A DNA stretch of 64,000 nucleotides, taken from an uncultured Actinomycetota bacterium. Its GTDB lineage: Bacteria > Actinomycetota > Actinomycetes > Propionibacteriales > Nocardioidaceae. The position numbers were made by a program, and so were the translations under genes. Below, one piece after another: positions 1,390-49,627 of this stretch. Position 1 is the stretch's first letter. The number at the start of each line of letters is the position of its first letter. The notes under the pieces are model-generated. The model did not search any database, was not told the origin of the DNA, and saw nothing but the letters and a program-made list of their open reading frames with translations. The stretch covers positions 86,062 to 150,061 of the forward strand of contig CAVXGJ010000008.1 in NCBI GenBank assembly GCA_963761285.1, read 5' to 3'.

Positions 1390-1416
1390 GCACCAGGCCC
1401 GAGCCGGTCACTGCCT

Positions 1417-1614
1417 TCATGATCGCTCGACCCTCAGCGCCAGGCGGGGGCACGCGCGCGCTGCGGCACGAGCCTCGGACAGGCGGACGTCGTCGACTTC
1501 GCCGACGACGAGCGGGTAGCCCCACTCGTCGAGGTCGATGATCTCGGGCAGCAGCTCATGGCACAGTCCGTGCGCTTCGCACGCGGGCCAGTCGATCCGG
1601 ATCCGGTGGGTCAT
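1417..1614 (-). CDS. Small ferredoxin (3Fe-4S type)
   Basis: IDWPACEAHGLC...CPRLAL; ATGA overlap with the upstream gene. Confidence 0.85.
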   Translation of the reverse strand: MTHRIRIDWPACEAHGLCHELLPEIIDLDEWGYPLVVGEVDDVRLSEARAAARACPRLALRVERS

Positions 1615-4422: not shown

Positions 4423-4423
4423 G

Positions 4424-4937: not shown

Positions 4938-5018
4938 GACCGGAGCCTGACGGGACCGACGCCATGAGCACCTCAGGAGCGGGTCAAGCCCACGTCAAAA
5001 AAGTTCTTGACCTCGAAT

Positions 5019-5046
5019 TGAGGTTCTCACGAGGTGCGGCTGAGGT
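5019..5046 (+). promoter_or_regulatory. Three YGAGGT direct repeats at 11-bp period, candidate OmpR-family binding site
   Basis: TGAGGT 5019, CGAGGT 5030, TGAGGT 5041; reverse copies at 5010 and 4970; lies in a divergent promoter region. Confidence 0.55.
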
Positions 5047-5068
5047 GCCGGGGGCCAGGGTGTCGACC

Positions 5069-5704
5069 ATGCCCCGACCCCACAGGTTGTCCTTCGTCCG
5101 CCGCACGGCCTGGCTCACCGCCGGGATCGCGACCACCTCGCTCGCTGTAGGCCTGGTCGGTGCGACCATCGCCTATCGCGCTGCCGTGGGTCCGCCGGTC
5201 AGCGCCACCAGGTCGACAGCATCGCTGCCGCTCGCGGACGCTGCCGCAACACCGGTGGCGAGCCAGTCGCCCGCTGCGACGACCCGACGCCAGGACGTAC
5301 GAGCCCGAGCCAAGGTCCGGTGGGCGCCTTGCGCACCGACCGCGGTGCTGGAGAAGGGGGTCTGTGTCACCGACGTCGTGCGCACCGTCGTCCTGCCACC
5401 TACGCCCTCGTCCGTGCCCTCGTCCGTGCCCCCGGTTGCGCAGCCGGTGGTGCAGGCGCCGGCTCCGTCGACCCCCGCGGCTCCTTCCCCGCCGCCTGTG
5501 CGCCACGACAGCCCGGCGGCCTCGACCGGTCAGGCCGGCGATCACGGCGACGATCACGGAGATGACCGCGGCGACGACCACGACGACGACCAGGACGACG
5601 ACCAGGACGACGACCAGGACGACGACCACGGGGATGACGACGAGGATGACGACGGGGACGACGACCACGGGGATGACGACGAGGATGACGACGAGGACGA
5701 CTGA
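5069..5704 (+). CDS. Membrane-anchored protein with His/Asp-rich C-terminal tail
   Basis: N-terminal TM, Cys pair (CAPT...GVCV), Pro-rich linker, tail DHGDDHGDDRGDDHDDDQ...EDD. Confidence 0.7.
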   Translation: MPRPHRLSFVRRTAWLTAGIATTSLAVGLVGATIAYRAAVGPPVSATRSTASLPLADAAATPVASQSPAATTRRQDVRARAKVRWAPCAPTAVLEKGVCVTDVVRTVVLPPTPSSVPSSVPPVAQPVVQAPAPSTPAAPSPPPVRHDSPAASTGQAGDHGDDHGDDRGDDHDDDQDDDQDDDQDDDHGDDDEDDDGDDDHGDDDEDDDEDD

Positions 5705-5705
5705 G

Positions 5706-7022
5706 TCAGGCCTCCGCGACCGGCAAGGTCACCTGCACCCGCGCACCGCCCTGGCTCGGGGAGTCCCGCTCCAGCCGGCCGCCGGCCGCGGTCGCCGTAC
5801 GCGATGCGATGTCGAGCCCGAGACCGGTGCTGCCGGGCCGGTGGTGCTCGACCGTCGCTCGGTCGGGGAAGCCGGGGCCTTCGTCGGCGACGACGAGGAC
5901 GGCGACATGGGGTTCCGTGCGCAGCTCGATGGAGAGGGCAGTGCCTTCGGTGGTGTGGGCGAAGACGTTGTCGATCAAGATGTCGACGAGGTCGCGCAGG
6001 TCGTCGTCGGCCAACGACACGGTCAACGGTCCGGCGGCCAGGCTCGTGCTCAAGGTGCGGCCCTGGTCCTCCGCGAGTGGGCGCCAGAAGTCCAACCGTG
6101 CAGTGACTCCTGCCGCCAGGTCGCTGGAGGCCGCGAGGTCGGTTCGCACCGGCCGGCGAGCCTCGCGCACGATGGCATCGATGGTCCGCTGGAGGACGGC
6201 GATGTGCTCGCCCAGTCGCTGCGCAAGCATCGGGTCGCTCACTGCTTCGGCGTCCAGGCGGAGCGCCGTGACCGGTGTCCGCAAGCGGTGCGACAGGTCC
6301 CCGACGGCTGCCCGTTCGCTGATGAGAAGCTCGGAGGTGCGCTCGGCCAAGCCGTTGAGGGCGCGAGCCAGCTCCTGGGTCTCTGCGGTGCCCACCACCG
6401 GGGCCCGTGCCGCGAGGTCACCTTCCCGGAGCCGGTGGGCGGTCTCGGAGACACCTCGCAAGGGGTCGCTGATCCGCTTGCCGAGTCGCAGGGCGACGAC
6501 GGTGGCCAGCGTCATGAGGAGCAGCCCCAGACCGATGATGCCGATCCACGCCGCCGTCACGCCTGCTCGCAGCTCATCACCGTCGACGGTGCTGCGGACC
6601 ACCGCGGTGCCGTCGTTGACGATGACGGGCAGCAGGACCCTCCCGCTGCCGCCGGTGACGCTCCGGAAGGCTTCGCCGTCGAGGGCGCGAGCGACGTCGG
6701 GATCAGTGGACATGTCCGGGCCGCCGCCGATCTGTGCCCCATCGGGGGTCAGGACCGAGGTGGTCGGCTCCTGCTCGACCGAGATCCCGGCGAGCAGCTC
6801 CGCCAGCTGGTCATCGTTGCTGACGCCGGAGACCAGGATCGCGACGTTGCGAGCCTCCTGATCGGCCGTGGCCATGGCCCGGTCCTCCGCCAGCGTCCGG
6901 ACCAACAGGCACAGCGGGATCACGAATGAGACCACCACGCTCGACGTCGTTGCCACGACCAGCCAGGAGATCCGGTGGCGCATCATGCCTGGCCCTCGAC
7001 CGGCCCGCCACGGTCGAGTCAT
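5706..7022 (-). CDS. Sensor histidine kinase (2 TM, HAMP, HisKA, HATPase)
   Basis: DLSHRLRTPVTALRL H-box, DILIDNVFAH, VADEGPGF, GLGLDI; ATGA overlap with the regulator stop. Confidence 0.92.
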   Translation of the reverse strand: MTRPWRAGRGPGMMRHRISWLVVATTSSVVVSFVIPLCLLVRTLAEDRAMATADQEARNVAILVSGVSNDDQLAELLAGISVEQEPTTSVLTPDGAQIGGGPDMSTDPDVARALDGEAFRSVTGGSGRVLLPVIVNDGTAVVRSTVDGDELRAGVTAAWIGIIGLGLLLMTLATVVALRLGKRISDPLRGVSETAHRLREGDLAARAPVVGTAETQELARALNGLAERTSELLISERAAVGDLSHRLRTPVTALRLDAEAVSDPMLAQRLGEHIAVLQRTIDAIVREARRPVRTDLAASSDLAAGVTARLDFWRPLAEDQGRTLSTSLAAGPLTVSLADDDLRDLVDILIDNVFAHTTEGTALSIELRTEPHVAVLVVADEGPGFPDRATVEHHRPGSTGLGLDIASRTATAAGGRLERDSPSQGGARVQVTLPVAEA

Positions 7023-7708
7023 GTCGGGTCCACGAGCCGCACGCCGACGCCGCGCACGCTCACCAGGTAGCACGGGTTCGCGGCCGTCTCGCCGAGCTTG
7101 CGGCGCAGCCACGACAGATGTACGTCGACGGTGCGGTCCGAGCCGCCGTACGCCTGCTGCCAGACCTCGGCCAGGAGCTCGTTCTTGGTCACGACCTCGC
7201 CGGCCCGCGTCGCCAGGAGGTAGAGCAGGTCGAACTCCTTGCGGGACAGCTCCAAGGGCTCGCCGCGCAGAGTCGCCTCGCGGGTGCGCTCGTCGATCGA
7301 CAGCTCTCCCACCCGCACGGGCGGCACCGGCTCGACGTCCCGACCCGGGCCGCCGCGGCGCAGCACCGCACGGATGCGGGCGGCGACCTGGTCGGTGCCG
7401 AAGGGCTTGACCACGTAGTCGTCGGCACCGTTGTCGAGCGCCGAGATCATCGTCGGGTCGTCGTCCTGGGCGGTGATCACGATGATCGGCACCTGGCTGG
7501 CGGCGCGGACCATGGAGATCAAGGTGAGCCCGCCGATGTCGGGAAGGCCGAGGTCCAGCAGCATCACGTCGGGGTGGTTCGCGAGCACCTGCTCGAGCCC
7601 GGCCAGCCCGGTGCTGACGGAGGCCACCGCGAAGCCACGCTCGCTCAGCCCACGATGGACGGCGCCACGGATCGCCGCATCGTCCTCCACCAGCAGGATG
7701 CTCGCCAC
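7019..7708 (-). CDS. OmpR-family response regulator
   Basis: ILLVEDD, LLDLGLPD, GADDYVVKPF, winged helix RTVDVHLSWLRRKLG. Confidence 0.95.
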   Translation of the reverse strand: MASILLVEDDAAIRGAVHRGLSERGFAVASVSTGLAGLEQVLANHPDVMLLDLGLPDIGGLTLISMVRAASQVPIIVITAQDDDPTMISALDNGADDYVVKPFGTDQVAARIRAVLRRGGPGRDVEPVPPVRVGELSIDERTREATLRGEPLELSRKEFDLLYLLATRAGEVVTKNELLAEVWQQAYGGSDRTVDVHLSWLRRKLGETAANPCYLVSVRGVGVRLVDPT

Positions 7709-7763
7709 GTCTCGACCTTAGCCATCGCGCGACGACGCTTGGCCGAGGTAGGAGAATGAAGAC

Positions 7764-8450
7764 ATGCTGAGTGGTTACCGACCGGTGGTGCTCGGCCTCG
7801 TCGCCTGGCTCGCCGTGGTGCTGGTGGCGTCAGGGTTGGTCTGGACGGTGATCTCGCGCGCCGGCGCCGACGTGATCGCCGGCGGCACGTCGCTGCCGCC
7901 CCACGCGACCGGTGCGGTGGGGCCGGCAGAGGTGTCGCCGGCCACGCCGACCCGGAGCGGTGCGCGAGACCGCAGTCGGGATCGCGACCAGCAGCCCGGC
8001 TCGACATCGCCCCCCTCGACCACGGCGACCGCGCCCGACTCGAGCTCGCCACCGTCGAGTGCGCCCACCCCGCTCCCGCAGCCCTCGAGCACGGCTGGGC
8101 CAAGTGCATCGGCAACGTCGCCGAGCAAGACCCCGGCGGCGACGCCCACACAAGCGCCGTCTGGCGCGTCGAACCCACCGTCCTCGTCCTCGTCCTCGTC
8201 GAAGAGTCAGCAGCGCACCTGGTCGGGAGCAGCCGGGGTGGTGACTGCCGAGTGCCGGGGATCGGCGATCTCGCTGGTGGGGGTCAACCCGTCGGCCGAC
8301 GGCTACGCCGTCGAGGTGAACAACCGCGGGCCGGAGGAGCTCGAGATCCACTTCGAGGGCCGAGGAGACGAGGACGGCAAGGAGACCGAGCTCCGGGCCG
8401 AGTGTCGGGGCGGTGTGCCGGCCTTCGATGTCTCCGTGGGCGACGACTGA
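7764..8450 (+). CDS. Membrane-anchored protein with Ser/Pro/Thr linker and small Cys-pair C-terminal domain, divergent from the two-component system
   Basis: TM helix, low-complexity linker, domain VTAECRG...GYAVEV...RAECRGG; RBS AGGAGA. Confidence 0.7.
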   Translation: MLSGYRPVVLGLVAWLAVVLVASGLVWTVISRAGADVIAGGTSLPPHATGAVGPAEVSPATPTRSGARDRSRDRDQQPGSTSPPSTTATAPDSSSPPSSAPTPLPQPSSTAGPSASATSPSKTPAATPTQAPSGASNPPSSSSSSSKSQQRTWSGAAGVVTAECRGSAISLVGVNPSADGYAVEVNNRGPEELEIHFEGRGDEDGKETELRAECRGGVPAFDVSVGDD

Positions 8451-8566
8451 CGGTGCACGGCTGGTGCGGGCACTCCCGTGAAGTAAAGAATGTGGCATCC
8501 GGGTCCTCGTGGTCGGAGTCTTCTCTAGCCTCGAGAAGGTCCTGTTCGTCCAGCGAAGGATCTGTC

Positions 8567-9241
8567 ATGACTCAGTCCACCTGGCGCGCGTTCGGCGCAG
8601 CCCTGCTCGCGATCTGTCTGCTCGGTACCGTCGGCTCGGTGTCCTACGCCGCCGGATCCAAGGTGGTCGCCCTCGGCACCGCCAACAAGTCGTCGAAGGC
8701 GACCACGCTGCAGACCAAGAAGGGCCCAGCGTTGGTCCTCAAGACGAAGAAGTCCTCACCGCCGCTGAAGGTGAACTCCAAGAAGCGCGTAGCCAAGCTC
8801 AACGCCGACCAGGTCGACGGACTGGACGCCGAGCAGCTCGCTCCCGCGACGACGACGTACACGTTCGGTGAAGCCGGCGATCGGGGCAACGCAGACACCT
8901 TCCTCGTCGAGAACTCAGGGACCGGGACCTACCGCATGGACGTCAACGCGTCGCTGGTGCCCGCAGGCCCCGCATCGAAGATCGGGTTCTGTGGTCTGGG
9001 GGTGTTCGAGGCCGGAGAACACAGGTACGTAGCCGGTTCGTCTGCGCCGATGGATGAGGCTGTGGGTTGGCGCGCCAACGTCAGTGCATCCAAGATCGTC
9101 ACGCTCGCGCCTGGCGAGCGGTTGTCCGTCAGTTGTCTGGTGGACCAGGGCACGTTCAGCTACTACGACGCCTACCCGCTGACGGTCTCGCTGACGCCGG
9201 TGCTCGAGGAGTCCTTCGCCACGTTGACCGAGTTCGATTAG
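8567..9241 (+). CDS. Secreted hypothetical protein
   Basis: Signal peptide ending SYA; Lys-rich segment and NADQVDGLDAEQL motif; RBS GAAGGA. Confidence 0.7.
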   Translation: MTQSTWRAFGAALLAICLLGTVGSVSYAAGSKVVALGTANKSSKATTLQTKKGPALVLKTKKSSPPLKVNSKKRVAKLNADQVDGLDAEQLAPATTTYTFGEAGDRGNADTFLVENSGTGTYRMDVNASLVPAGPASKIGFCGLGVFEAGEHRYVAGSSAPMDEAVGWRANVSASKIVTLAPGERLSVSCLVDQGTFSYYDAYPLTVSLTPVLEESFATLTEFD

Positions 9242-9268
9242 CAGCACCGAGGCGCGCCGTGCAGGGGG

Positions 9269-9323
9269 TCGTCCACAGCCACGCCGCAGCCATGTGCCGT
9301 GCGTCGGCCCCCGCCGTTAGGGT
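9269..9323 (+). promoter_or_regulatory. dinG promoter: DnaA-box variant plus PafBC-like element and -10 (leaderless)
   Basis: TCGTCCACA 9269; CGTCGG-N10-TAGGGT 9302-9323; GTG 6 nt after the -10. Confidence 0.5.
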
Positions 9324-9329
9324 GCTCTG

Positions 9330-11348
9330 GTGCCTGACGCCCCCAGCCCCGAGACCACCGCCGACTCCGCGGTGCACACGGTGCTGGCCACGGCTGTCGC
9401 CGCCCTCGGCGGGGCCGAGCGCTCCGGGCAGGTCGCGATGGCCGATGCCGTCGGCAACGCGTTCCGGAAGAAGGAGCACCTGCTGGTGCAGGCCGGCACC
9501 GGCACCGGCAAGTCGTTGGCCTACCTCGTGCCCGCACTGGTGCACGACAAGCGGGTCGTGGTCGCGACGGCCACGCTCGCGCTGCAGCACCAGCTCGTCG
9601 AGCGTGACCTTCCGCGGCTGGTCGAGGCGGTCAAGGGCTCGCCGGGCGTCGACACCTCCTACGCCGTGCTCAAGGGCCGCTCCAACTACGCCTGTCTGCA
9701 CCGCATCCGCGAGGGCGTCCCCGACGACCAGGGGGTGCTGGTCGACGTGCCCCAGGGCTCGATGGCCGAGAAGGTGCTCGAGCTGCGTTCGTGGGCCGAG
9801 AAGGAAGCCACCGACAAGGGCTCGGGGGAGCGCGACGCCGCGCCCCGCCATACCGACCGGGAGTGGCGCCAGGTCAGCGTGGGCCACCGCGACTGCCTGG
9901 GTGCCACCAAGTGCCCCTTCGGCCAGGAGTGCTTCGCCGAGGTCGCCCGCGAGAAGGCCCAGCGCTCCCACCTGATCATCACCAACCACTCGCTGCTCGC
10001 GATCGACGCGATCGAGGGCATCCCGATGATCCCCGAGTACGACGCCGTGGTGATCGACGAGGCCCACGAGCTGACCGCGCGGGTCACCCAGGCCGCCACC
10101 GACGAGCTGACCTCGGCCGACGTCGAGCGGGCCGCGCGCCGGTCGGTGCGCCACGTCGAGGGCAACGAGGCCGACGACCTCGCCGATGCCGGCGATGCGC
10201 TGCGCGATGCGATGGCCGAAGCCCGACCGGGCCGGATGGAGCGACTGCCTCCCGAGCTCTCCGACGCCCTGGTGCTGGTGCGCGACGCCGCCCGCGCCTG
10301 CCTGTCGGCCTACCCGAAACCGTCCGACGCCAAGGGCAAGGACGGGGAGGCCGATCCCGGCCTCACCCAGGCCAAGGGCACCGTGCAGGACGTCTTCGCG
10401 GTCGCCGAGCGGATGGCGGCCTGCGCGGCGACCGACGTGCTGTGGCTCAACGAAGGCGGCACCGGCGAGCGCAGCCGGATCCCCCCGCGCCTGGCCATCG
10501 CTCCGCTCGAGGTGTGGGGGCCGATGCGCGACAAGCTCCTGACCGACAAGACCGTGGTGATGACCTCGGCGACGCTGATGCTCGGAGGCGACTTCTCCTC
10601 GCTCGCCACCAACGTCGGGCTCAAGCCGACCGAGCGCGTCGGGCGCACCGACGACGCCGACTTCGGCGAGGACGCCCAGCCGTGGGTCGGCCTCGACGTC
10701 GGTTCGCCGTTCGACTACGCCCAGCAGGGCATCCTCTACGTCGCCCGCCACCTGCCGCCGCCGGGCCGCGACGGTCTGGTCAAGGCCCAGCTCGACGAGA
10801 TCGTCGAGCTCGTCGATGCCGCCGAGGGCCGCACGCTCGGGTTGTTCTCGAGCCGGCGCGCCGCCGAGGCCGCGGCCGAGGAGGTCCGCACCCGGCTGCC
10901 CCACCTGACGACGCTCGCGCAGGGCGAGGCGCAGCTGCCCGAGCTCGCCAAGCAGTTCGTCAGCGATCCCCACACCTGCCTCTTCGGGACCCTCAGCCTC
11001 TGGCAGGGTCTCGACGTGCCGGGGGAGACCTGCCAGCTGGTGCTCATCGACAGGATCCCGTTCCCCCGCCCCGACGACCCGTTGATGAGCGCGCGGCAGA
11101 AGGCCGCCGACGCGGCCGGCGGCAACGGCTTCATGCAGGTCGCGGCCACCCACGCCGCGCTGCTGCTCGCCCAGGGCTCCGGCCGGCTGATCCGCACCAC
11201 CACCGACCGCGGGGTGGTCGCCGTACTCGACCCGCGGCTCGCGACGGCCCGCTACGGCTCGTTCCTCAAGGCCTCGCTGCCGCCGATGTGGACCACCACC
11301 GACCCGGCGATCGTGCGCAAGGCGCTGGCCCGGCTGGCGGCCGGCTGA
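9330..11348 (+). CDS. dinG: ATP-dependent DNA helicase, DinG family
   Basis: QAGTGTGKS, KGRSNYAC Fe-S cysteines, DEAH, GVDVPG-like GLDVPG, QGSGRLIR. Confidence 0.93.
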   Translation: MPDAPSPETTADSAVHTVLATAVAALGGAERSGQVAMADAVGNAFRKKEHLLVQAGTGTGKSLAYLVPALVHDKRVVVATATLALQHQLVERDLPRLVEAVKGSPGVDTSYAVLKGRSNYACLHRIREGVPDDQGVLVDVPQGSMAEKVLELRSWAEKEATDKGSGERDAAPRHTDREWRQVSVGHRDCLGATKCPFGQECFAEVAREKAQRSHLIITNHSLLAIDAIEGIPMIPEYDAVVIDEAHELTARVTQAATDELTSADVERAARRSVRHVEGNEADDLADAGDALRDAMAEARPGRMERLPPELSDALVLVRDAARACLSAYPKPSDAKGKDGEADPGLTQAKGTVQDVFAVAERMAACAATDVLWLNEGGTGERSRIPPRLAIAPLEVWGPMRDKLLTDKTVVMTSATLMLGGDFSSLATNVGLKPTERVGRTDDADFGEDAQPWVGLDVGSPFDYAQQGILYVARHLPPPGRDGLVKAQLDEIVELVDAAEGRTLGLFSSRRAAEAAAEEVRTRLPHLTTLAQGEAQLPELAKQFVSDPHTCLFGTLSLWQGLDVPGETCQLVLIDRIPFPRPDDPLMSARQKAADAAGGNGFMQVAATHAALLLAQGSGRLIRTTTDRGVVAVLDPRLATARYGSFLKASLPPMWTTTDPAIVRKALARLAAG

Positions 11349-30860: not shown

Positions 30861-32162
30861 TCAGGCGTTCTGGTCGCTGTGGTCCGACCGACGAGTCACG
30901 ATGACCTGGCTGACGGCGATGATCGCCGCCACGCTCAATGACACCGCCAGCGTGAGGACGTCGTCGCGTGCCTTGATCGTGACGAAGGCACCGAGCACCA
31001 CGAGATCGAGCGCGATTGCGATCGCCGGGACAACGGGAGTCGCCTTGATGTCGATGCGCAGGTGCCGGATCACGCCCCAGTGGATGGCGATGTCCATGGC
31101 GAGGTAGAGGATCGCGCCCATCGAGGCGATCTGACCCAGGTCGAGAAACGCCGCGAGCACGATCGCCAGACCAGCGGTCACCACCAGCGACTGGTGGGGC
31201 ACGCGCGACGGCAGACCCGGCGCCTGCCCCATGTCGCGCAACATGTCGTAGAGCCGGGTGACCGAGTAGATGCTGGCCAGCAGGCCGGAGAAGGTCGCCA
31301 CGACGGCGAGGGCGATCGTGAGCCCCACGCCCCAGGACCCGAAGAGGGGTTCCGCTGCCGCGGCCAGCGCGTAGTCGCGGGCCTTGACGATCTCGTCGAC
31401 GCTGAGGCTGCCGGCCACGGCCACGGTCAGCACCAGGTACAGGACGGCGCAGAGCACGATCGAGATGGTGATCGAACGGGCCAGGTTCTTCTTCGGGTCC
31501 CTGATGTCACCGCCCTGGTTGGTGATGGTGGTGAAGCCCTTGTAGGCCAGGATGCAGAGCGTCGTCCCGGCGAGGAAGCCGAGCACTCCCTGGTCGCTGC
31601 TGCCGTTGTCGGCGCTTGCGAAGTCGAGCATCGACGACGGCCCGGTCGCGATGATCGCACCGATGGCCAGAGCACCGATGCCGAGGATCTTCAGGCCGGC
31701 CGTCACCGTGGCTGACCGCTCGACCCACTGGGTGCCGACCAGGTTGATGAGTGCAGCGACGACGATGACGCCCACGGCGAGCGCGGGCACCAGGACTGCG
31801 GAGTCCTCGAGCCCAAAGGGGCGCAGTGCGTAGGTGCCGAAGGTGCGGCCCAGCAGGCTCTGGGCCACCACCATCGAGACGTACATGAACAACGAGAACG
31901 TGCCGGCGATGACCCCCGGTCCGTACGCCGCCTTGAGCAGCATTGCGATGCCGCCGGAGGACGGATTGGTATCGGAGTAGCGCACGTAGGAGTAGGCGCT
32001 GAAGCCTACGACCACGGCGCCGGCGAGGAACGCCAGCGGCATCAGGGTGCCCGCCAGCTCGCTCACCTGGCCGACGAGGGCGAAGATGCCGGCCCCGATC
32101 ATCACGCCGGTGCCGAGGGAGACCGAGCCTGCCAGGGACAGCTTGTCGTCGTGCTCGGACAT
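30861..32162 (-). CDS. APC-family amino acid/polyamine permease
   Basis: GTGVMIGAGIF, GGIA, about 12 TM helices. Confidence 0.9.
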   Translation of the reverse strand: MSEHDDKLSLAGSVSLGTGVMIGAGIFALVGQVSELAGTLMPLAFLAGAVVVGFSAYSYVRYSDTNPSSGGIAMLLKAAYGPGVIAGTFSLFMYVSMVVAQSLLGRTFGTYALRPFGLEDSAVLVPALAVGVIVVAALINLVGTQWVERSATVTAGLKILGIGALAIGAIIATGPSSMLDFASADNGSSDQGVLGFLAGTTLCILAYKGFTTITNQGGDIRDPKKNLARSITISIVLCAVLYLVLTVAVAGSLSVDEIVKARDYALAAAAEPLFGSWGVGLTIALAVVATFSGLLASIYSVTRLYDMLRDMGQAPGLPSRVPHQSLVVTAGLAIVLAAFLDLGQIASMGAILYLAMDIAIHWGVIRHLRIDIKATPVVPAIAIALDLVVLGAFVTIKARDDVLTLAVSLSVAAIIAVSQVIVTRRSDHSDQNA

Positions 32163-32219
32163 GGCGCCGAACCTAGCCAGCCGAGCCCCGGACGCCCTAC
32201 ATCCGTGGGGATGGGGTCG

Positions 32220-32274
32220 GTTATCCACAGATCGCTCCGACCCCCTGGCGACGGACCCGTTCTCGGCGCAGGCT
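32220..32274 (+). promoter_or_regulatory. DnaA-box-type motif plus -10 (leaderless)
   Basis: GTTATCCACAGATCGCTCCG 32220; CAGGCT 32269; ATG 32281. Confidence 0.7.
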
Positions 32275-32280
32275 CGGGTC

Positions 32281-33468
32281 ATGTCTCGGTCTCGGAAGCG
32301 CCCCTCGTCCATCCCGCCCGCTCGGCCGTCCAGCGGCCGCTACCGCTCGGTCGCCAGCCAGATGACCCTCGATCACGAGCTCGCCGTCGCGGAGGCCAGT
32401 GCCGCCGAGCTCCGCGGCGACTGGGCCACCGCCTTGGCCCGCCACCGGTCCGTGCCGATGTTCGTGGAGTCGCACCACGGCGCGATGTTGTCGGCGCTGG
32501 CGACCTTCGGGGACGACGCGCCCCGATGGTGGGTCACGCGTTTCCTCACCGCAATGGCGCACCGCCACGAGCTCTACGCCCAGCCGACGCGTTCGAGCAG
32601 CGTGCTGCAGACCCTGGTGCCGCTGCTCTACCCCCACGGCATCGACATCGACGCCCTGGACTGCGACCACACCGAGCAGATCGCCTCGACGATCTTCGGC
32701 TGCGACTGGGTGGTCCGGCAGGCCGATGTCTTCGACCTCGGCGGGCTGCGCGATCTGATCGCGATGCCCGAGGCGCAGGGCGCGCTGGCGCAGGCCGAGT
32801 ACGTCGCGGAGTGGGCCGCGGCTCCGATGGGCGGCTATCGCGTGGTCGTCGCCGACGGCGAGGTCCTGACCATCGCCGACGCAGTCAGTGGTGAGGAGAT
32901 GGAGCTCCTCGACCTCGGCCTCACCTGCCAGCACGAGCCCGGCACCCACGTGCTGGGTCGCGTCGTGCCCACCGGCGCCGGACCCGGCCGACTCTTCGAC
33001 TGGGCGCCTCTCCCGGTGGACCAGCGCATCGCACGCGAGGTCGCCGGGCAGCCCGACCGCTGGCTCGCTGTCATCGCCTCGCGGACCAGGTCAGGGGCCA
33101 TGGCGCCGGGCTTCGCCCACCGCCCCGAGCTGTCGGTGCACGCCGACCTCCCGCAGTTCTCGTGGGCGCTGCTGCTGGGACACCCGATCGGCACGAGGCT
33201 GCCGCGCGCGCCGAGGACGATGGTCGCCGAGGCGCTCAAGGTCGCCCTCACGCTCCCCGTCGACGACCTCGAGCGGCACCGCCACCTGGTGGCCCAGCTC
33301 CTCCTCGACGAGCTCGTGCACGAGCGATTGCTAGAGCGCTTCGCATCACCGACCTACCGTGGCGCGTGGCAAGCGCTGGCGAAGATCCTGCCCACCCCCG
33401 CGCGCGGACGCTGCGAGCAGGCGCTCTGGCTGATCGACGCCGTGACCGGCGACGAGCTCGCGGGGTGA
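32281..33468 (+). CDS. Uncharacterised protein, paralogue C
   Basis: MSRSRKRP; DWVVRQ, VFDLGGL, WAAAPMGGY, LDLG, LGRVVP, PDRWL. Confidence 0.8.
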   Translation: MSRSRKRPSSIPPARPSSGRYRSVASQMTLDHELAVAEASAAELRGDWATALARHRSVPMFVESHHGAMLSALATFGDDAPRWWVTRFLTAMAHRHELYAQPTRSSSVLQTLVPLLYPHGIDIDALDCDHTEQIASTIFGCDWVVRQADVFDLGGLRDLIAMPEAQGALAQAEYVAEWAAAPMGGYRVVVADGEVLTIADAVSGEEMELLDLGLTCQHEPGTHVLGRVVPTGAGPGRLFDWAPLPVDQRIAREVAGQPDRWLAVIASRTRSGAMAPGFAHRPELSVHADLPQFSWALLLGHPIGTRLPRAPRTMVAEALKVALTLPVDDLERHRHLVAQLLLDELVHERLLERFASPTYRGAWQALAKILPTPARGRCEQALWLIDAVTGDELAG

Positions 33469-33476
33469 GCGAGGAC

Positions 33477-34043
33477 TCAGAGCAGCGCGATCATCACGTA
33501 GCCGTCGACAGGAGTGCCGTCGAGCTTCGTCAGGAACACGCCATGGCCGCCGTGCGGGTTGCACTGGCTGCCGTACTCGAGGTTGACCGTGGCGACGTAC
33601 TTGGTGAAGTCCTGGCCGTGGGCGGAGGCGATCACGGGTCCGTAGTTGCCGATCCCGGTCGAGTTGCCGTTGTTGCCGAGGCAGTAGACGCCGGTGGCCG
33701 GGTGCACGATGGTGAGGTTGGCGAAGGTGCCCTGCTGGTTGTAGAGGGTGCCGTTGGGCTGGATCATCGCGTAGCCCCGGGCGAGGCCGGCGTCGCCCTC
33801 GGGGCCCTGGGCACCCTCGGGGCCCTGCGGACCCTGCTCACCCGCCGCGCCGGTCGCTCCCTTCTTGCCCTTGAGAGCCTTGACGGTCGACTTCTTGAGG
33901 TCCACGACCTTGATCGTGTGGTCCTTGATCTGGGCGCTCGTCACCAGCGACCCGGCGACGGCCGAGCCTGCAGAGACGAGGACCAGGGCGAGCAGCGCGA
34001 CCACCATCGAGGGGGTCGGGACGAGTCTTCTGAGGATGCGCAT
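33477..34043 (-). CDS. Secreted protein with short collagen-like (Gly-X-Y) segment
   Basis: Signal peptide; GKKGATGAAGEQGPQGPEGAQGPEGDAG; RBS AGGAG. Confidence 0.8.
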   Translation of the reverse strand: MRILRRLVPTPSMVVALLALVLVSAGSAVAGSLVTSAQIKDHTIKVVDLKKSTVKALKGKKGATGAAGEQGPQGPEGAQGPEGDAGLARGYAMIQPNGTLYNQQGTFANLTIVHPATGVYCLGNNGNSTGIGNYGPVIASAHGQDFTKYVATVNLEYGSQCNPHGGHGVFLTKLDGTPVDGYVMIALL

Positions 34044-39416: not shown

Positions 39417-40597
39417 TCAACCAGCGTTGGACTTGGGTTTACGGACGCCGCCGTAGATGCCGCGGCGCACGATCAGCGGCTGGAGGATCGAGTTGATGGT
39501 CCAGGCCGGGAAGCGGAAGGCGCGGCCGTTGGCGGCGAAGACCTCCAGGCCGTCGGGCTGCACTCCCAGCACCGAGCCCCAGCGTCGCTTCGGCGGTTGG
39601 TAGGCCTTCGGCGCCTTGCCGGCCAGCACCGCACGGACGTTGCGGGCCAGGAGCTTGTCGGCGCGGTTGCGGGCCGAGGTGCGCAGCGGGTCGGTGGCGG
39701 CCACGTCGCCGACCGACCACACCCCGGGCGCCCCCGGCACCCGCAGCTCCGGGTCGACGGTGACGAAGCCGTGCTCGTCGAGCAGGTCGGCCGGCAGCCA
39801 CCCGGTGTTGGGGTGCACCCGACCGATCGCCCACAGCACCGCGTCGGCCCGGGTCGGCGGCTGCCCGGTGCTCCACGCGACCGGGTCGGCGGTGATCGCG
39901 TCGCACCCGAAGCCCTCGGGCACCACCGCGCGATGCTCCGGGTGCAGGGTCACCCCGGCGGCGTCGAGGCGGCGCTGCACCTGCCGCCAGACGCGATGGT
40001 GGTGCTGGGGGAGGGCCCGCTCGCCCAGGGAAGTAGAGGTGCACCCGGCTGTCCGGCCAGGCGAGCGCGAGGTTGAGCGCACTGCTCACCGCCGCCGCCC
40101 CGCCGCCCACGACGGCGATCGACGACGCTGCGGCGAGGCGCTCGTGTGCTTCCTGCAGGTCGGCCCCGACCTGGTCCGGGGACTGGAGGTCCGGGCGGCG
40201 CCAGAAGCCGTTGGTGACGCCGGTCGCGATCACCAGGACGTCGTACGGCTCGGCGTGCAGGAACCCGTCGGGGTCGGTGACCAGGACGGTGCGTCCGTCG
40301 AGGTCCAGCCCGGTGAGGCTGCCATGCACGCGCTTGACCCGGTCGAGCCCGCGGAAGCGGTCGAGGGAGATCCAGTAGTCGCGCGCCCAGTCGTCGGGCC
40401 GGGCCAACCGCACCCCGAGCTCCTGGCCGCTGACCAGCGACTGCTTCGCCGACACCCCGACGACCTCGCCGACCGCACGCGGAGCGCGCGAGGTGCACGG
40501 CGCACAGCAGCCCGCTGTCGCCGAGGCCCGCGACGACGACCTTGGCCTTCTGCTTCTTTGGGCTTCTTGGGTTTTTGCTGGGCTCGGGCTCGCTCAC
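39417..40597 (-). CDS. FAD/NAD(P)-dependent oxidoreductase (frameshifts near 40030 and 40470)
   Basis: VVVAGLGDSG, YDVLVIATG, VVGGGAAAV, VWSVGDV across three frames. Confidence 0.8.
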
Positions 40598-41474
40598 CCG
40601 CGCACCCGACGGGGCGGGCGCGGCATCAGCATCGGCACCCGGTCGATCACCTCCTGGTAGTGCGGGCGCCGCTCGAGGCTGCGCTCCTCCATCAGCGGGA
40701 TGCTGGCTCCGAGGAACATCGCCAGCATCGCCGCGACGCCGATCGAAGAGCCACCAGAAGTCGCCGGGGGCAGCCGCGATCCCGAACAGCGCGAGCGAGA
40801 CCCAGAACATCAGCTCGCCGAAGTAGTTGGGGTGTCGCGACCAGGACCACACGCCCCGGTCCATGACCTGGCCCGGCTGGCGGTCGCGCACGAAGCGGTG
40901 CATCTGCAGGTCGGCGACCAGCTCGAGGGCCACCGCGCCCACGCCGACGACGACGGCGAGGACGTCGATGAGGCCGACGTCGCGACCGGAGCGGGTGACG
41001 GCGACATACATCGGCAGGCAGCCGAGGAAGACCTGGATCGTCGGGATCAGGTGGATCCCGAACAGGTCGGCGACGACGTCGAACCGTCCGGCGCGCTCGC
41101 GCAGCAGCGGGTAGCGCCAGTCCTCGTGGTGCAGCCCCGGCCAGGCGTAGGCCCAGTTGGCGGTCAGGCGCACCGCCCACAGCAGCACGACCAGCGCGAC
41201 CAGCCAGAAGCGCACCGGATCGATGCCGTCGCTCTGGCTCCACCAGTAGAAGAGCAGCAGCGGGGGGACCACGCTCCAGTAGGCGTCGTAGAAGCTGGAG
41301 TTCCGGTGGACCCGGCTGAAGCCGAAGATGACGAGGGTCGCCAGCAGGTCGGCGATGAGCGCGTCGAGCCAGAGCGTAGGCGGTGGTGGGGCCGAGCGCG
41401 AGCCACAGGACGGCCACCGCGAGCGCGGCGACGTAGGCCTGGGCCACCCGGAGGAGAGAGGCGTTCTTGGTCAC
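40594..41474 (-). CDS. DUF1295 / steroid 5-alpha-reductase-like membrane protein (frameshifted)
   Basis: NSSFYDAYWS, WAVRLTANW, EDWRY, GVWSWSRHPNYFGE. Confidence 0.85.
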
Positions 41475-43488: not shown

Positions 43489-46167
43489 ATGACCTCCACC
43501 CGACGCCTTTCGCGTTCCCTCCGTCGTCCCTTCCGCCGTCCCCTCCTGGCCACGCTCTGCGCGCTCGTCCTGGTGCTCGCCACCTTCAGCCTCGTCGTCG
43601 CCCCGCCCGGTGGGCCGCCCCCGGCTGCGGCGGCGACGCGGGTCGCGAAGGACGACTGCCGCAGGATCGACCCCAACCTCGTCAACGGCGTCTGCCTGCG
43701 CTTCGCGACGCCGCGAGGCAGCGCGCTGACCTGGATCGGCACCTATCGGGCACCCGAACGGGCGGGTGTTCTTCTGCATCGACTACCTCTACGACTCCCG
43801 GTTGCCGGCGCAGGCCGAGTCGGTCTCGACCCGCGACCTGGTCAACCAGCTCGGTCAGGGCGTCGGCGACCGTGAGGTGGCCGCCCTCAACTACGTCATC
43901 TCGACCTGGGCCGGGCGCGGCTCGACCGGCAGCGACGAACGCGACGCCGCGATCGCGCTCATCGTGCGCGAGGTGATGGACGACGGCACCCGTCCGGGCG
44001 GGGTGGTCGTCTACCCCGGCGGCCTCGAGGTGGGCGAACGGGTGCGCCCGCCGATCGGCGGGCTCGGGCGGTGAGGTGATGCGCCTGGCTCGCACGATGT
44101 GGCGGGAGGCGTCGCGCGCCTACGGTCCGTGGCGGCTGAGCCTGCGCAAGACCTCCGACGGGCCGATGCGGCTCGGCCGCAGCCGCACCTACCGGGTCGA
44201 GGTCACCAGCGCCGCGGGGCGTCCGGTCAAGGGCGTCCGGGTGCGGCTGGCCTGCCGTGGCCCGATCACCTGCCCGGACGGCGTGCGCACCACCCGCCGC
44301 GGTGCGCCGCTGCGGGTGCGTCCCACCGAGACCGGTCGGTTCCGGATCCGCGCGCGGGTGTCCGGGCCGGACTCCGACGGGCTGCTCTACCGCGAACGCG
44401 GGTGGAGCACGCACGGCGGCGCCACCGCCCGGGCGCTCGGAGTCCAGCGTGGATGGATCGCGCAGGACAACCGGGCGCGAGCATCTGCGACGGCGCGCAC
44501 CACCATCAAGAAGGCTCGCCCGGAGGTGGTCACCCGCACGTCGCACCCGGTGGTGAAGCCCGGGGCCGACCTCCACGACGTCGTCACGGTCACCGGACTT
44601 CCCGAGGGCTACGCCGCCACCGTGGTCGCCACCCTGCACGGTCCGTATGACGAGCGCCCCGGCCGCGACGACGTGCACCGACGCCAGCCGCGCCGGTCGG
44701 GTGCGCTTCGAGGTCGACGGCAACGGCACCTTCACCACCCCCTCCGTCACCGTGGCCGCGGTGGGCTACTACACCTGGGTCGAACGCTTCCCCGGCGACC
44801 GCTTCACGGTGCCGTTGACCACTCGTTGCGGGATCGTCGAGGAGACCACGCTGGTGGAGCCCTTCACCCCGGCCCTGATCACCGAGGCCTCGCGGCAGCG
44901 AGCCGAGGTCGGCGACGCGATCCACGACTCCGTCGAGGTCACCGGTCTGGCCGACACCGCGGCGACCCTCGAGTGGGCGCTGCACGGGCCGCGCCGTCCT
45001 GTCGACGGGTCGTGCGGCGAGGTCCGCTGGGGTGCGGCGGAGGTGGCAGATCAGGGCAGCCTGGCGATCAGCGGCGACGGCACCTACCGCACGCCGGCCA
45101 CGCGGCTGGCGCGCGCCGGTTGCTACACCTACTCCCAGCGGCTCGCCCCCACCGCCCTCAGCTCCGAGGCGCTCAGCCCTCCGGGCCTGGCGCTCGAGAC
45201 GACGCTGGTGCGGCGTCGTACGCCCGAGGTGACGACGGTGGTCTCCGACCAGCGCGCGCTGGTCGGCGACAAGATCCGCGACACGGTGCGGCTGCGAGGA
45301 CTGTGGTCGGGTGACCGGGTCCGGGTGTCGTGGCGGCTGCACGGTCCGCTCGCACCGCAGCGGGGCACGTCGTGCCGCGGGTTGGACTGGTCGGACGCGC
45401 CGGTCGTCGACGAGGGCGAGTTCGGGGCGCGCGGCAACGGGCGCCACCACACCCGCTGGACCACGGTGCGGGCGCCGGGGTGCTTCACCTACTCCGAGAC
45501 GGTGGCCGCGACCGATGCCACCGACCGGGTCGCCACCAGGCCCGGGATCCCGCTCGAGACCTCACTGGTGACCCGGCCGGTGACCCCGATCGTGCCGGAG
45601 ATCCCGTCGGGCTTCGCGATCGCTGCCGGCGACGCCTGGGACCGGCCTGCAGAGCGGACGACGCCGCGCTACCTCGAGCGCCGCTACGTCGCACCCGAGT
45701 CACCCGACCTGCTGCGCGGGGCGGCTTCGCCCGCCGAGCTGCGGATCCCGCGGTTGGGGATCCGGGCCGGGGTCAGCAGCGTCGGGCTCGACGCCGGCAC
45801 GATGGCGATCCCCAACGACACCGGCCGGCTCGGGTGGCTCTCCACGACCGCGGCGGCCACCGACCTGATCGGGGCGAGCCTCATCTCGGGCCACGTCTCC
45901 GACCGCCGCGACCGTCCGGGGGCGTTGTGGCGGCTGCGTGAGGCGCGGGTGGGCGACGCGGTGCGGTGGACCGACGCGAGCGGCGCGACGCAACGCTTCG
46001 TCGTACGTCGGGTCCAGCGGTTCCCGCGCAGCACCGGGGTGCCGGCGCGGCTGCTGCGCACCACCGGGCCTCACACCCTGCACCTGGTGACCTGCGCCGA
46101 CCGGCGCCGCACGAGCACCGGCTTCCACTACGTCGACAACCTCGTCGTGACCGCGGTGCTTCCGTAG
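43489..46167 (+). CDS. Secreted multidomain adhesin-like protein fused to a C-terminal class F sortase (three apparent frameshifts)
   Basis: Signal peptide; FFCIDY domain; three repeats of ..DxVxVxGL...LHGP...GC/YYT.S/VE...ETTLV; sortase LRIPRLGI, ISGH, LHLVTC, YVDN. Confidence 0.75.
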
Positions 46168-47088: not shown

Positions 47089-47311
47089 CGACGTGGGCCC
47101 TCCAGGGCTCATCAGGGGAACGGGAGTGCGGATGAAGCTGAGCGTGTGGAAGCTGCTTGGGTGTCGCCGGCGTGGCCGGTGTCGCCGCCACGGGGGTCAT
47201 CATCGCGCGCGACCAGCGCTCCCGCGCCGACCTCACCCCCGACGAGGTGCGCGAGCGGCTTCACGAGCGGCTCGCCGAAGTCGGCGAGTCCGGCGAGTCG
47301 GCGCCTGGCGG

Positions 47312-47615
47312 CTAGTCGCCGAGGTGGACGCGGACCCGGCGGGCGATCTCCTCAGCCAGCCGCGGTAGCCGCCGGGGGTCTCGTCCAGGTAGACGTAGCT
47401 GCCCATCGCGTCGAGCAGCGCGTCGAGCTCGGCCTCGGTAGAGCGGGGTCGGTCAGGACGGCGTCGAGCTCGACCAGCAGCCTGCGGTTGTCCTCCGGCG
47501 GGCTCGTCGGCGAGGTACTCCTCGAGCCCGCTCCAGAGGGTCTCGAAATCCTCGTGGTAGTAGCCCATCAGCTGCTGCTCAGCTCCGAGTCCTGCATGCG
47601 GTCAGTCTCCCTCAT
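47312..47615 (-). CDS. CdiI-like immunity protein (frameshifted)
   Basis: GYYHEDF motif, acidic, about 100 aa; ATGA-coupled to the toxin stop; reconstructed end WLEEIARRVRVHLGD-TAG. Confidence 0.65.
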
Positions 47616-49002
47616 GGCTTCACGTAGGCGGTGATGATGCGGTAGCCGTCCGGCATGGAGCGTGTCCTTCTTCAGGTAGAGGTGCACCGACGTGCCCTCG
47701 AAGACGTCGCCGGCCCGGTTCATGATCCGGCCCGGATTGGCGACGGGTGCCTCGAAGGCAGTGGACCGCCTGGGGCTGGCGAGGAACCGGGCCAGGGTCC
47801 GGCTCCGTCAGCGCCAGTACGGTCTGGATGGAGCGCTCCGCGGTGGCCTCGTCGGTGAAGGTGGACACCAACTTCTTGCCAGGCTCGTCGATCAACCGCT
47901 GCCTCAAGAAGTCGTCCGACTTGCCGACATGCTTCCCGATCGTGTGCGCCCCCAGCGCCCACCCTCGTGCGCCGCACAAGAACGACCTGGCCCGCCCGCC
48001 GCTCGACCCAGCCTTCCCCACCTCAGCGGTCATCAGCAGCCGCGCCTCGCTCATCGGGCGCAACCGCGCCCCGACGCCGGCCGCGGCGACGCGGGTGCCG
48101 GAGAGGGCCTGGGCGGCTTCGTCGGCGTAGCGCCGCACGAGGTCGAGCATCCGCTTGAAGCGGGGCGCGGCGGCCGCGATCTTGGCGAGGTTGACGGCGA
48201 CGGCGCCACCGTTGGCGGTGCCGAAGCTGACGAAGCCGAGCGCGAAGCCGGCGGCCTGGATGAGGGCGGCGTCGCGGAGCAGGTCGCGGACCAGGTCGAG
48301 GATCGCCGCGCGCTGGGCCTCGACTGCGGCGGCGTACCCCTCGCAGAGGGCGCCCAGATCGCGGCACTGGTCGGCGAGGTCGCCGATCGCGATCACCGCG
48401 CGGCCGATGGCTGCCGTCGCCGGGAGGACCTCGGGGGAGCACTCGGTCCAGAGCTCGTTGATCGCGCGGCGCGGGTGGCCGGCGATCTCGTCGAGACCGT
48501 CGCCGGCGCGGCGCCAGGTGGCGGCGGCACTCCGCAGCCGGTCGAGGTCGGCGTCGGGCCACACGAAGCCCTCGACGTGGTCGAGGATCATGTTGGCCCA
48601 GCCGGGCAGCGACGAGGAGTCCCCGCCCAGCGACCCCGGGGGTGTCGGGGCGAGCACGTCGACCCAGTCGTCGGTGCCGAGCGAGACTCCGTCGACCAGG
48701 CGCACCTCGCCGAGGGTGGAGGCGAGCTCGGCGCGGGTGTGGTTCTCCAGCGAGGCACGCGAGTAGCGGCCCAGGGTGCCCAGGGCGCCGACCACGTCGG
48801 CGAGGGCGGCGCACGCCGCGGCGGCCGCGGCGTCGTACTCCTCGGCCCACCGATCGGCGAACGAGGAGTCGCCGGCCATCGCTGCGGTGTCGACGAGGTC
48901 GTCGGCGAGCCGGCCGACGAGCCGGGCCGCCCACACGTTGGCGAAGTGCAGGAGCCCCGAGGCCTCGCGGTAGCCGCCCCCGGCGATGTCGAGCCGGGTC
49001 AC
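47612..49002 (-). CDS. CpnT-like type VII secretion polymorphic toxin with RNase-A-like C-terminal domain (frameshifts in toxin domain)
   Basis: N-terminal MAGD...YD..A...N..AE and VWPDADLDRLRSAAATWR; C-terminal HE.G..GAHTIGKHVGKSD...STF...SMPDGYRIITAYVKP. Confidence 0.8.
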
Positions 49003-49301
49003 AGGCGCTCCCACATCGCCAGGTTGGCGCGCACCGCCGCGCCGTAGTTGGTGCGTGCGGTGCTCGCCGCCGTACGCATCGCCGCCAGGCCCTCGCGCAT
49101 CGTCGCGAAGCCGGTCTCCCACCGCGCCTGCGCCTCGAGCTGGGCAGCAGCTGCCTGTCCCTCCCAGGTCAGGTGCAGCCGACCTACTTGGCGCACGACG
49201 TCGTCCAGCGCCCGGTCGCACTCCTCCTCGCAGGCGACGAGGCTCTCGATGGTCTGCGCGAGCAGGTCCAGGTCCACGGCGTACGCCGCCGGGTGGCTCA
49301 T
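48999..49301 (-). CDS. esxE: WXG100 protein, EsxE-like
   Basis: 100 aa; RLHLTWEGQAAAAQLEAQARW...NYGAAVRANLAMW. Confidence 0.8.
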   Translation of the reverse strand: MSHPAAYAVDLDLLAQTIESLVACEEECDRALDDVVRQVGRLHLTWEGQAAAAQLEAQARWETGFATMREGLAAMRTAASTARTNYGAAVRANLAMWERL

Positions 49302-49627
49302 CCGAGGCGCTCCACGAGCCGGCGGGTCAGCGAGACCAGGGCGGTGCGCGCGGAGTCGTCGGCGCCGTCGGCCTCGGCGCCGGCGTCGACGATCAGTGCC
49401 GTCAGGCTCCGCAACGCGCCCAGGACCTCGTCGCAGCCGAGGCGCCACTCCTCCCAGCCCTCGAGGTAGGAGCGCGCCGCGGCGCCGGACCAGCCGCCGT
49501 CGAGGAGCACGTCGACCTGGCGCTCGGTGACCCGTCGGCGCCGCTCGAGGTCGTCGCTCACCCGCTGCAGGGCTGCGACGGTGGCGGCGAGGTCAGGGTG
49601 GCTGAGCTGGAGGAGGGGGTGGGTCAT
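49298..49627 (-). CDS. esxF: WXG100 protein, EsxF-like
   Basis: 109 aa; GGWSGAAARSYLEGWEEWRLG; RBS GGGAG. Confidence 0.75.
   Translation of the reverse strand: MTHPLLQLSHPDLAATVAALQRVSDDLERRRRVTERQVDVLLDGGWSGAAARSYLEGWEEWRLGCDEVLGALRSLTALIVDAGAEADGADDSARTALVSLTRRLVERLG

Follow-up and report, generated by a model that had tools for sequence, protein, structure and literature searches.

The window analysed here, a stretch of 64,000 nucleotides from contig CAVXGJ010000008.1 of an uncultured member of the Nocardioidaceae (assembly GCA_963761285.1), contains between positions 43489 and 46167 of the forward strand a gene whose product joins an adhesin and a sortase in one polypeptide. The region is Nocardioides-like and of high GC content (~70-75%), and none of the RNA-seq runs searched contains it. 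Our reading, to which we assign a probability of roughly 0.6, is that the gene encodes a secreted adhesin of the TIE type which has kept its sorting motif, that in this protein a class-F-like sortase of its own occupies the place of the tail with which sorting signals ordinarily end, that the frameshifts interrupting the gene in this contig are assembly errors, and that the protein may anchor itself.

The fusion is conserved. The search with the merged protein returned 109 relatives, mostly from Nocardioides, including about 60 intact proteins of 860-916 amino acids (aa) that cover 94-100% of the query with an identity of up to 80%; several of these carry the NCBI name 'class F sortase'. A scan of species-representative genomes gave 32 family loci, with fused single open reading frames (ORFs) in isolates of at least 7 species. 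These homologues, which are not always split, confirm the fusion described in the initial annotation as real, conserved and encoded by a single ORF in isolate genomes. A gene-merging artefact caused by a lost stop codon was considered and rejected: more than 60 independent assemblies carry the fused form, and the linker of the fused proteins is unlike the corresponding part of the split forms.

The split forms are found in Marmoricola and related genomes, where the adhesin is a gene of its own that terminates 3-12 aa past the motif VPEIPSG, and the next gene encodes a sortase of the same subfamily (220-242 aa) with its own N-terminal transmembrane (TM) segment (MIRMLMLAAGLITAVVLVVIL in the split relative L001). 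The sortase gene either overlaps the adhesin stop codon by 4 nt (ATGA) or starts 75 nt downstream. In the fused proteins about 185-215 aa come after the motif. Read from the sequences, this series is a Rosetta-stone relationship, in which the fused Nocardioides protein is the predicted substrate with its membrane tail replaced by a dedicated sortase. A further group of unfused homologues (P0091, P0092, P0095-P0099 and P0104; ~700-730 aa) stops 19-28 aa past VPEVPTG in a Trp/aromatic-rich tail (e.g. GPSRSTWVDWFARPVWPWAA), which is neither a TM segment with a basic anchor nor the short Marmoricola tail.

In the window protein the motif VPEIPSG (aa 701-707) stands at the junction between adhesin and sortase. 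Its positions are nearly invariant among the 109 homologues (V in 86, P in 102, E in 93, V or I in 52 and 49, P in 100, S or T in 63 and 37, G in 102) and directly adjoin a variable linker, and for this reason VPEIPSG is judged to be no chance match. The family consensus, E-[IV]-P-[ST]-G, fits the proven (E/Q/V)(V/P)PTG class, and many members read EVPTG, the sequence in the Streptococcus pyogenes pilin Spy0128 whose T-G bond Spy0129 cleaves (PMC3019223). Besides the nearly identical motif, the S. pyogenes pilus shares with the present system a dedicated sortase encoded beside its substrate; it differs in that Spy0129 is a class B enzyme rather than F-like, in that Spy0128 and Spy0129 are separate proteins and in that the acceptor of Spy0128 is a pilin Lys. 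Three homologues (P0077, P0088 and P0093) continue after VPEIPSG with a hydrophobic stretch and an Arg-rich tail, that is, a classical tripartite sorting signal, and a distant homologue of 1242 aa (P0105) ends in RIDTG, a TM segment and RRRQ. The window protein has the pentapeptide E-I-P-S-G (not LPXTG itself) and lacks the hydrophobic and charged tail, whose position is occupied by the linker, which contains no hydrophobic stretch. The junction motif is a sortase sorting signal because the split adhesins end there beside a dedicated sortase, or a classical tail comes next. Self-processing at IPS|G, as put forward initially, is a well-motivated possibility to which the comparison of homologues lends strong support, and the junction is predicted to be accessible, since it is modelled as disordered.

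The distant homologue P0105 belongs to a surface-protein cluster on a metagenome contig (L078, positions 1-11336; ERZ794916), together with a 2002-aa CLIPPER protein ending in QIATG, a TM segment and RNRRR. These two proteins flank a free-standing class-F-like sortase (214 aa) that belongs to the same subfamily, and two CAP/G5/TIG proteins of the cluster are without such a tail.

Gene structure and sortase domain

The features of the gene, all on the + strand, are the following (AF2, AlphaFold2; pLDDT, predicted local distance difference test; Ig, immunoglobulin).

43489-46167, + strand: whole gene, adhesin-sortase fusion, 891 aa once three extra bases are removed
43489-43635, + strand: Sec-type signal peptide, aa 1-49, with an Arg-rich N-region, a 20-aa hydrophobic core and PPGGPPPAAAAA|T, read from the sequence
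43636-44516, + strand: class II thioester-domain-like head, aa 50-342 (AF2, Foldseek and residue conservation)
43753-43755, + strand: frameshift 1, surplus C in a CCC run, frame 1 to frame 2 (tblastn; contigs of runs X1-X3 omit the base at 43753)
43775-77, + strand: Cys96 in FFCID, position of the bond-forming Cys of thioester domains
43940-60, + strand: RDAAIAL(IV), degenerate equivalent of TQxxΦW
44069, + strand: frameshift 2, one surplus base, frame 2 to frame 0 (tblastn; contigs of runs X1-X4)
from near 44124, + strand: β-sandwich insert of the head
44445-47, + strand: Gln319 in GVQRGWIA, a ΦQζΦΦ-type Gln
44517-44862, 44863-45216 and 45217-45591, + strand: three Ig-like stalk repeats (internal repeats, AF2 for repeat 3, Foldseek)
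44671, + strand: frameshift 3, one surplus base, frame 0 to frame 1 (tblastn; contigs of runs X1-X4)
45592-45612, + strand: VPEIPSG sorting-signal motif, predicted scissile bond Ser706|Gly707
45613-45660, + strand: variable linker, predicted disordered (pLDDT <50), length and sequence varying in alignment A1
45661-46164, + strand: class-F-like sortase (Pfam PF04203, NCBIfam class_F_sortase, conserved residues)
45892-94, + strand: His801 (ISGH)
46027-29, + strand: Arg846, invariant (PRxxGxP), 22 residues ahead of the Cys
46093-95, + strand: Cys868 (LVTC)
46138-40, + strand: Asn883 (YVDN)
46165-67, + strand: stop codon of the fusion gene

In the deposited contig the gene consists of four ORF pieces that successively occupy frames 1, 2, 0 and 1, and in a plot of GC content at third codon positions (GC3) the frame changes coincide with the three ORF junctions. 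Using tblastn with intact homologues, the junctions were located at 43753-55, 44061-71 and 44659-72, with one surplus base at each; the one at 44069 produces the apparent stop at 44072, and after correction at 44671 the frame reads ...PGRDACTDAS.... According to the tblastn comparison and the GC3 plot, the corrected frames are stop-free, have a high GC3 and show 76-87% aa identity to the homologues. The length of the merged protein agrees with the single ORF of ~890 aa that the initial annotation expected after three single-base corrections; two of its shift positions (~43757 and ~44070) were right, and the third (~44650) was off by roughly 20 nt. All the elements it listed (signal peptide, FFCIDY, DAAIALIV, three repeats, VPEIPSG and the sortase residues) are found in the merged protein, IPSG starts at 45601 as it stated, and no hydrophobic segment is present past VPEIPSG or at the C-terminus, in agreement with the absence of a C-terminal TM anchor that it reported.

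The sortase domain (aa 751-891) is recognised by Pfam PF04203 with 47.1 bits (cutoff 26.6), the match spanning 1-124 of the 125 profile positions. Among the NCBIfam models NF033748 fits best, over positions 8-153 of 155 with 68-73 bits, below its curated cutoff of 166. The sortase is classified, from its sequence, as a divergent sister subfamily that is class-F-like, because the scores of the family (59-80 bits) stay below this cutoff despite full-length cover. When a profile of the domain was compared with the PDB, SGH and LVTC aligned with the catalytic His and Cys of 8t28, 2xwg and 1ija (class C and class A), the positions of His120 and Cys184 in S. aureus SrtA; these matches are weak and end at the Cys, and the third catalytic residue is not alignable in that way. 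There was no match in the PDB when the domain was used as a single sequence in phmmer, and a homologue search restricted to the sortase domain yielded no more than 8 short proteins.

The His and the Cys are invariant in alignments A1 and A4, and so is Asn883 (YVDNLVV). The statement in PMC6998099 that cites Malik & Kim 2019 gives as the hallmark of class F in Actinobacteria the replacement of the canonical catalytic Arg by Asn, and Asn883, within YxDNLVV, is located at the canonical Arg position. The N-terminal TM segment of class F sortases was not found in the fused forms, which have no hydrophobic stretch between motif and sortase. The sortase looks catalytically competent because the His, the Cys and the class F Asn are near-invariant and the first two align with solved sortases. 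A conserved pre-catalytic sequence, P-R-Y-L-x-R-x-Y-x-A-P (window 45661-45735, alignment A1), a candidate lid, strand or recognition element, is common to split and fused sortases. Compared with the class F sortases (NF033748; SrtF of P. acnes; the SrtF paralogues of Streptomyces and Actinoplanes), the Nocardioides domain is alike in its sortase fold, His, Cys and Asn for Arg, and unlike in that it follows its presumed substrate in the chain and has no N-terminal TM segment of its own. The literature still assigns class F no known physiological role, and in Actinoplanes a quadruple srtF deletion was without phenotype (PMC13251363, 2026). An AF2 model of the third Ig-like repeat, motif and sortase reached a mean pLDDT of 69, with the N-terminal half of the sortase poorly modelled.

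Thioester-domain-like head and Ig-like stalk

The pattern of the signal peptide, with the A-x-A site that follows its hydrophobic core, is kept in the homologues; the site of the window protein is AAA|T. A lipoprotein anchor was rejected: 'ATLC' has a -1 position that misfits a lipobox, and the homologues do not keep the Cys.

In class II thioester domains (TEDs) the bond-forming Cys lies in [YFL]CΦζ, the Gln belongs to a ΦQζΦΦ motif that is weak and located on a strand following a β-sandwich insert of ~75 residues, and the TQxxΦW motif on helix α2 is dispensable for thioester bond formation (PMC6194298). The head of the window protein has both partners: F-C-I-D fits the Cys motif, and Cys96 is kept in 108 of the 109 homologues; V-Q-R-G-W fits the Gln motif, and Gln319 is kept in 105. 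Cys96 and Gln319 are 223 residues apart across the β-sandwich insert, compared with 195 in BaTIE and 204 in EfmTIE86. The helix equivalent to TQxxΦW reads R-D-A-A-I-A, with D in 102 of the 109 homologues; this auxiliary motif is the only degenerate one. The initial annotation had concluded that the Gln partner was absent, a claim that proved wrong because it was based on TQxxΦW rather than on ΦQζΦΦ.

An AF2 model of the head, built from the homologue P0001 with 18 aligned sequences, reached a pLDDT of 89.8 and consists of β-strands, three helices, a β-sandwich and a last β-hairpin. Foldseek matched it in the PDB at E<=1e-3 to class II TEDs only (6fwy, EfmTIE86, 1.5e-6; 6fwv, BaTIE, 4e-5), at modest template modelling scores (TM-scores) of 0.34-0.41 and root-mean-square deviations of 8-11 Å. 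A profile of the N-terminal domain gave no TED match in the PDB or Pfam, only chance or Ig-like ones, and the assignment rests on fold and motifs because sequence profiles detect no TED. The head is thus predicted to be a class II thioester domain, with Cys96 and Gln319 as the bond pair.

The stalk is formed by three repeats that match each other at 36% identity (E 1e-37), each of repeats 2 and 3 having a conserved Cys pair. Repeat 3 was modelled with confidence, and its best Foldseek matches are the ester-bond domains 8dj2, 4ni6, 8f90 and 8fha (E 1e-4 to 7e-4, TMt 0.53-0.61), so that it resembles Cpe0147-type domains; the Pfam match of the stalk to PF18202 is weak (E 0.043, 14.7 bits, cutoff 23.8). 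In the canonical ester-bond motif, taken here as a lead, a first-strand Thr is combined with a last-strand Gln and a His/Asp cluster. A canonical Thr-Gln ester bond was rejected for this stalk: the first-strand Thr is conserved, and the last strands read ETTLV or ETSLV, without Gln.

The window protein is therefore close in plan to TIE adhesins such as BaTIE of B. anthracis and EfmTIE86 of E. faecium, with which it shares an N-terminal signal peptide, a TED-like head with the [YFL]CΦζ Cys and a Gln that follows the β-sandwich insert on a late β-strand, an Ig-like stalk and a C-terminal sortase motif. It differs from them in a head without detectable sequence similarity to TED profiles and with a degenerate TQxxΦW (RDAAIAL), in a stalk that is ester-domain-like without the canonical bond residues and has a Cys pair instead, in E-I-P-S-G in the place of LPXTG, and in a sortase domain in the place of the TM segment and basic tail.

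Proposed self-anchoring and its alternatives

The sortase-domain profile was compared with 1.84 billion representative proteins, which gave 299 matches at E<1e-30, and the best 150 were inspected. In 78 of these 150, proteins of 300-2400 aa, the sortase is at the extreme C-terminus, followed by a median of 2 residues, and many of the C-terminal fusions carry CLIPPER/DUF11 repeats. A hydrophobic stretch ahead of the sortase is present in 1 of the 78. A junction motif of the form Φ-x-[T/S/G/A]-G-[F/Y/P] was found in 73 of them (T in 44, S in 4, G in 13, A in 12; the pattern is loose and the numbers approximate), in each case a few residues past a last Ig domain of like type (…H.CG..ETTLV…). An architecture of adhesin or other passenger plus sortase is widespread, to judge from these profile matches, because more than half of the best 150 are of this kind and a second adhesin-sortase gene occurs in one genome.

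This second gene was observed in Nocardioides sp. cx-173 (CP088262.1; L004, 1-3452, - strand), where, at a distance of 3.5 kb from the gene of the TED-type adhesin-sortase, a 1618-aa giant surface protein is encoded; it contains an L-type lectin domain, CARDB, CLIPPER/CLIPPER_2 and Sortase domains, its C-terminal part lying beyond the fetched locus. One group of fusions (P0180, P0184, P0188, P0192, P0195, P0199, P0200, P0204, P0210-P0212, P0230, P0231 and P0235) has the junction …AETT(T/V)VAK…P.[IV].GGFSG, in which Gly stands at the presumed P1 position instead of Thr/Ser. Microbacterium genomes (L042, L044, L047, L049-L053, L059-L061, L065, L070-L072 and L076) encode a fusion of another kind: lipoproteins of ~540 aa that have a class F sortase at the C-terminus and an N-terminal half resembling a GH8-type glycoside hydrolase (…VSEGQAYGLLLAVAA…WQWKDG…), and that show no obvious sorting motif.

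In the mechanism that we propose, the protein would be exported by the Sec pathway and lose its signal peptide, and the sortase, with Cys868, His801 and Asn883, would attack, within the flexible junction of its own molecule or of an adjacent one, the bond between Ser706 and Gly707, the adhesin then being held on the sortase cysteine as a thioacyl intermediate. An amine would resolve this intermediate, most likely that of a peptidoglycan cross-bridge or stem peptide, or alternatively a Lys on another subunit; the outcome would be a free sortase domain and an adhesin covalently attached through its C-terminus, its thioester head facing outward. Each adhesin would in this way bring its own sortase and a membrane anchor would not be needed. 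A dedicated, possibly single-turnover, reaction would fit the loss of the membrane anchor and the occurrence in one genome of several adhesins that each have a sortase of their own. That the fusions form a widespread class of self-anchoring 'autosortase' adhesins in Actinomycetota, with a Φ-x-T/S-G passenger and its own sortase, a single cis-transpeptidation and the enzyme discarded afterwards, is a tentative extension of this mechanism, towards which we are slightly sceptical.

Engineered tags for protein purification exist in which SrtA, LPXTG and the target are combined and cleave themselves. They resemble the Nocardioides protein in having sortase and recognition motif in one polypeptide and in (self-)processing at the motif, and differ from it in being artificial and in carrying the motif on the C-terminal side of the enzyme; in the natural Nocardioides protein the motif precedes the enzyme, and it is the passenger that would donate the acyl group. 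No description of natural sortase-substrate fusions was found in the searchable literature, where absence is no proof of novelty.

Several observations weigh against self-anchoring. There is no membrane tether after removal of the signal peptide, so that access to lipid II is uncertain. In the AF2 model the motif is not docked in the active site, and the junction and half of the sortase have a low pLDDT. All members of the family, split and fused, remain far from the NF033748 cutoff, and the only characterised class F sortase, that of P. acnes, is reported to use LPXTG, unlike the Φ-x-T/S-G motif found here. A clade of fused proteins (13 of the 73 with a junction motif) has Gly for the P1 Thr/Ser (NGGFSG), which is unusual for a sortase site and could mean that the junction motif is structural. 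Finally, long N-terminal extensions that are not obviously substrates occur in other sortases, namely the Microbacterium lipoproteins, in which a lipoprotein signal and a GH8-like part precede a class F sortase, and the 792-aa SrtE of Actinoplanes.

Three of these observations (the Gly clade, the large extensions and, among the modelling results, the lack of a docked pose) also suit a different arrangement, unlikely in our estimate, in which the signal peptide stays uncleaved as a signal-anchor, the TED and Ig domains hold or target a sortase acting in trans, and VPEIPSG is a hinge or a pseudo-substrate lid. The residue past the motif Gly, which is F or Y mainly in the fused forms, would agree with such a sortase on a stalk. 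The conserved A-x-A site after the hydrophobic core argues for cleavage of the signal peptide instead, and no second protein with a VPEIPSG-type motif was found within the 64-kb window. Against the stalk also speaks the organisation of the split relatives, where the N-terminal part is a separate protein ending at the motif, sometimes with a TM segment and basic tail, and adjoins a sortase with its own TM segment: an adhesin that ends at the motif beside a dedicated sortase gene has the signature of a substrate, not of a stalk. An N-terminal TED head in combination with a sorting signal at the C-terminal end is, moreover, the standard topology of TIE adhesins (PMC6194298).

Self-anchoring also has to be weighed against the possibility, improbable in our view, that the protein is a self-cleaving protease that releases its adhesin, water hydrolysing the thioacyl intermediate and the adhesin being shed or passed to an acceptor outside the wall, such as a subunit Lys in fibres. 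It is well established that sortases hydrolyse their substrates when no nucleophile is available, and the lack of a membrane tether near lipid II after signal-peptide cleavage would favour this outcome; the split forms with tails of 3-12 aa are likewise without a retention signal. In S. pyogenes, EVPTG-type motifs serve the polymerisation of pilin onto Lys (PMC3019223). No conserved acceptor Lys is evident in the family, however: the Lys of VAKD on the N-terminal side is absent in P0062 and in Marmoricola. The homologues with complete TM segments and basic tails point instead to classical wall sorting as the ancestral route.

The three frameshifts leave one more alternative, a true strain-specific pseudogene in which the insertions are real and the full-length protein is not made. 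They stand in the deposited contig, and the window's own 506-aa ORF is present in the protein collection (P0029). Metagenome contigs from four public runs, judged to be Illumina data because of Nextera adaptor tails in their loose ends, have one base fewer at 43753, 44069 and 44671; at ~99% identity to the window they indicate that near-identical relatives possess the intact ORF, and the stop at 44072, which initially had been considered as possibly real, is missing from them. These contigs differ from the window by ~0.7% single-nucleotide polymorphisms (SNPs), which makes them close relatives whose identity as the same strain is unproven, and two of the three insertions are not simple changes of homopolymer length. 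Against the pseudogene stand the corrected frames described above, stop-free throughout and with the identity and GC3 of a coding sequence, and the uniform direction of the errors: all three are +1 insertions, like the surplus bases elsewhere in the window, including one inside another conserved gene.

Between positions 26000 and 45999, comparison with contigs of the same runs (95-99% identical) revealed at least 30 single-base insertions or deletions (indels), and nearly all of the 12 listed are one surplus base in the window (e.g. 27357, 27405, 36192, 36211, 41375 and 41531). The indels are concentrated in SNP-rich stretches and missing from SNP-poor ones such as 31229-33579, which suggests consensus errors where strains mix. 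The other conserved gene (39950-41272, - strand) encodes a DUF1295/steroid-reductase-like membrane protein with an NYFGE motif; its frame is broken at ~40745, and its conserved C-terminus (SIPLMEERSLERRPHYQEV) resumes in another frame exactly at a base that the Illumina contigs omit. Homologues of the adhesin-sortase family in metagenome-assembled genomes (L025 and L032) have 4-5 serial +1 frame switches each, whereas those of isolates (N. szechwanensis, L008; N. psychrotolerans, L014) are in a single frame. Because the window holds so many other single-base indels, the three shifts most probably go back to consensus errors in the source assembly and not to biology, and a pseudogene is improbable.

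Neighbouring genes and significance

Downstream of the adhesin-sortase gene, the window contains a toxin module of the type VII secretion style (47620-49221, 48999-49448 and 47233-47568, all on the - strand). Its 533-aa protein combines WXG100_2 with a bacterial CdiA-CT RNase A domain; the match to the latter is confined to positions 1-46 of 113, and since it is partial, the toxin is probably cut by another frameshift near 47760. A WXG100 protein adjoins the 533-aa toxin, and the small ORF that follows downstream is a possible immunity gene.

Sortases are textbook examples of trans-acting, membrane-anchored enzymes with many substrates. If the reading of the window protein as a self-anchoring adhesin is true, a natural one-to-one fusion of substrate and sortase without a membrane anchor would represent a different logic of surface display. 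From the series of split and fused forms a cognate substrate can be named for class-F-like sortases, together with the non-LPXTG motif E-[IV]-P-[ST]-G (broadly Φ-x-T-G); for these sortases this would be the first physiological role and a new recognition motif. The compact self-ligating module, with its new specificity, could serve protein engineering. The predicted head would extend class II thioester adhesins to soil Nocardioidaceae, and its Cys-Gln pair sets right a frequent misunderstanding as to the Gln that takes part in the thioester.

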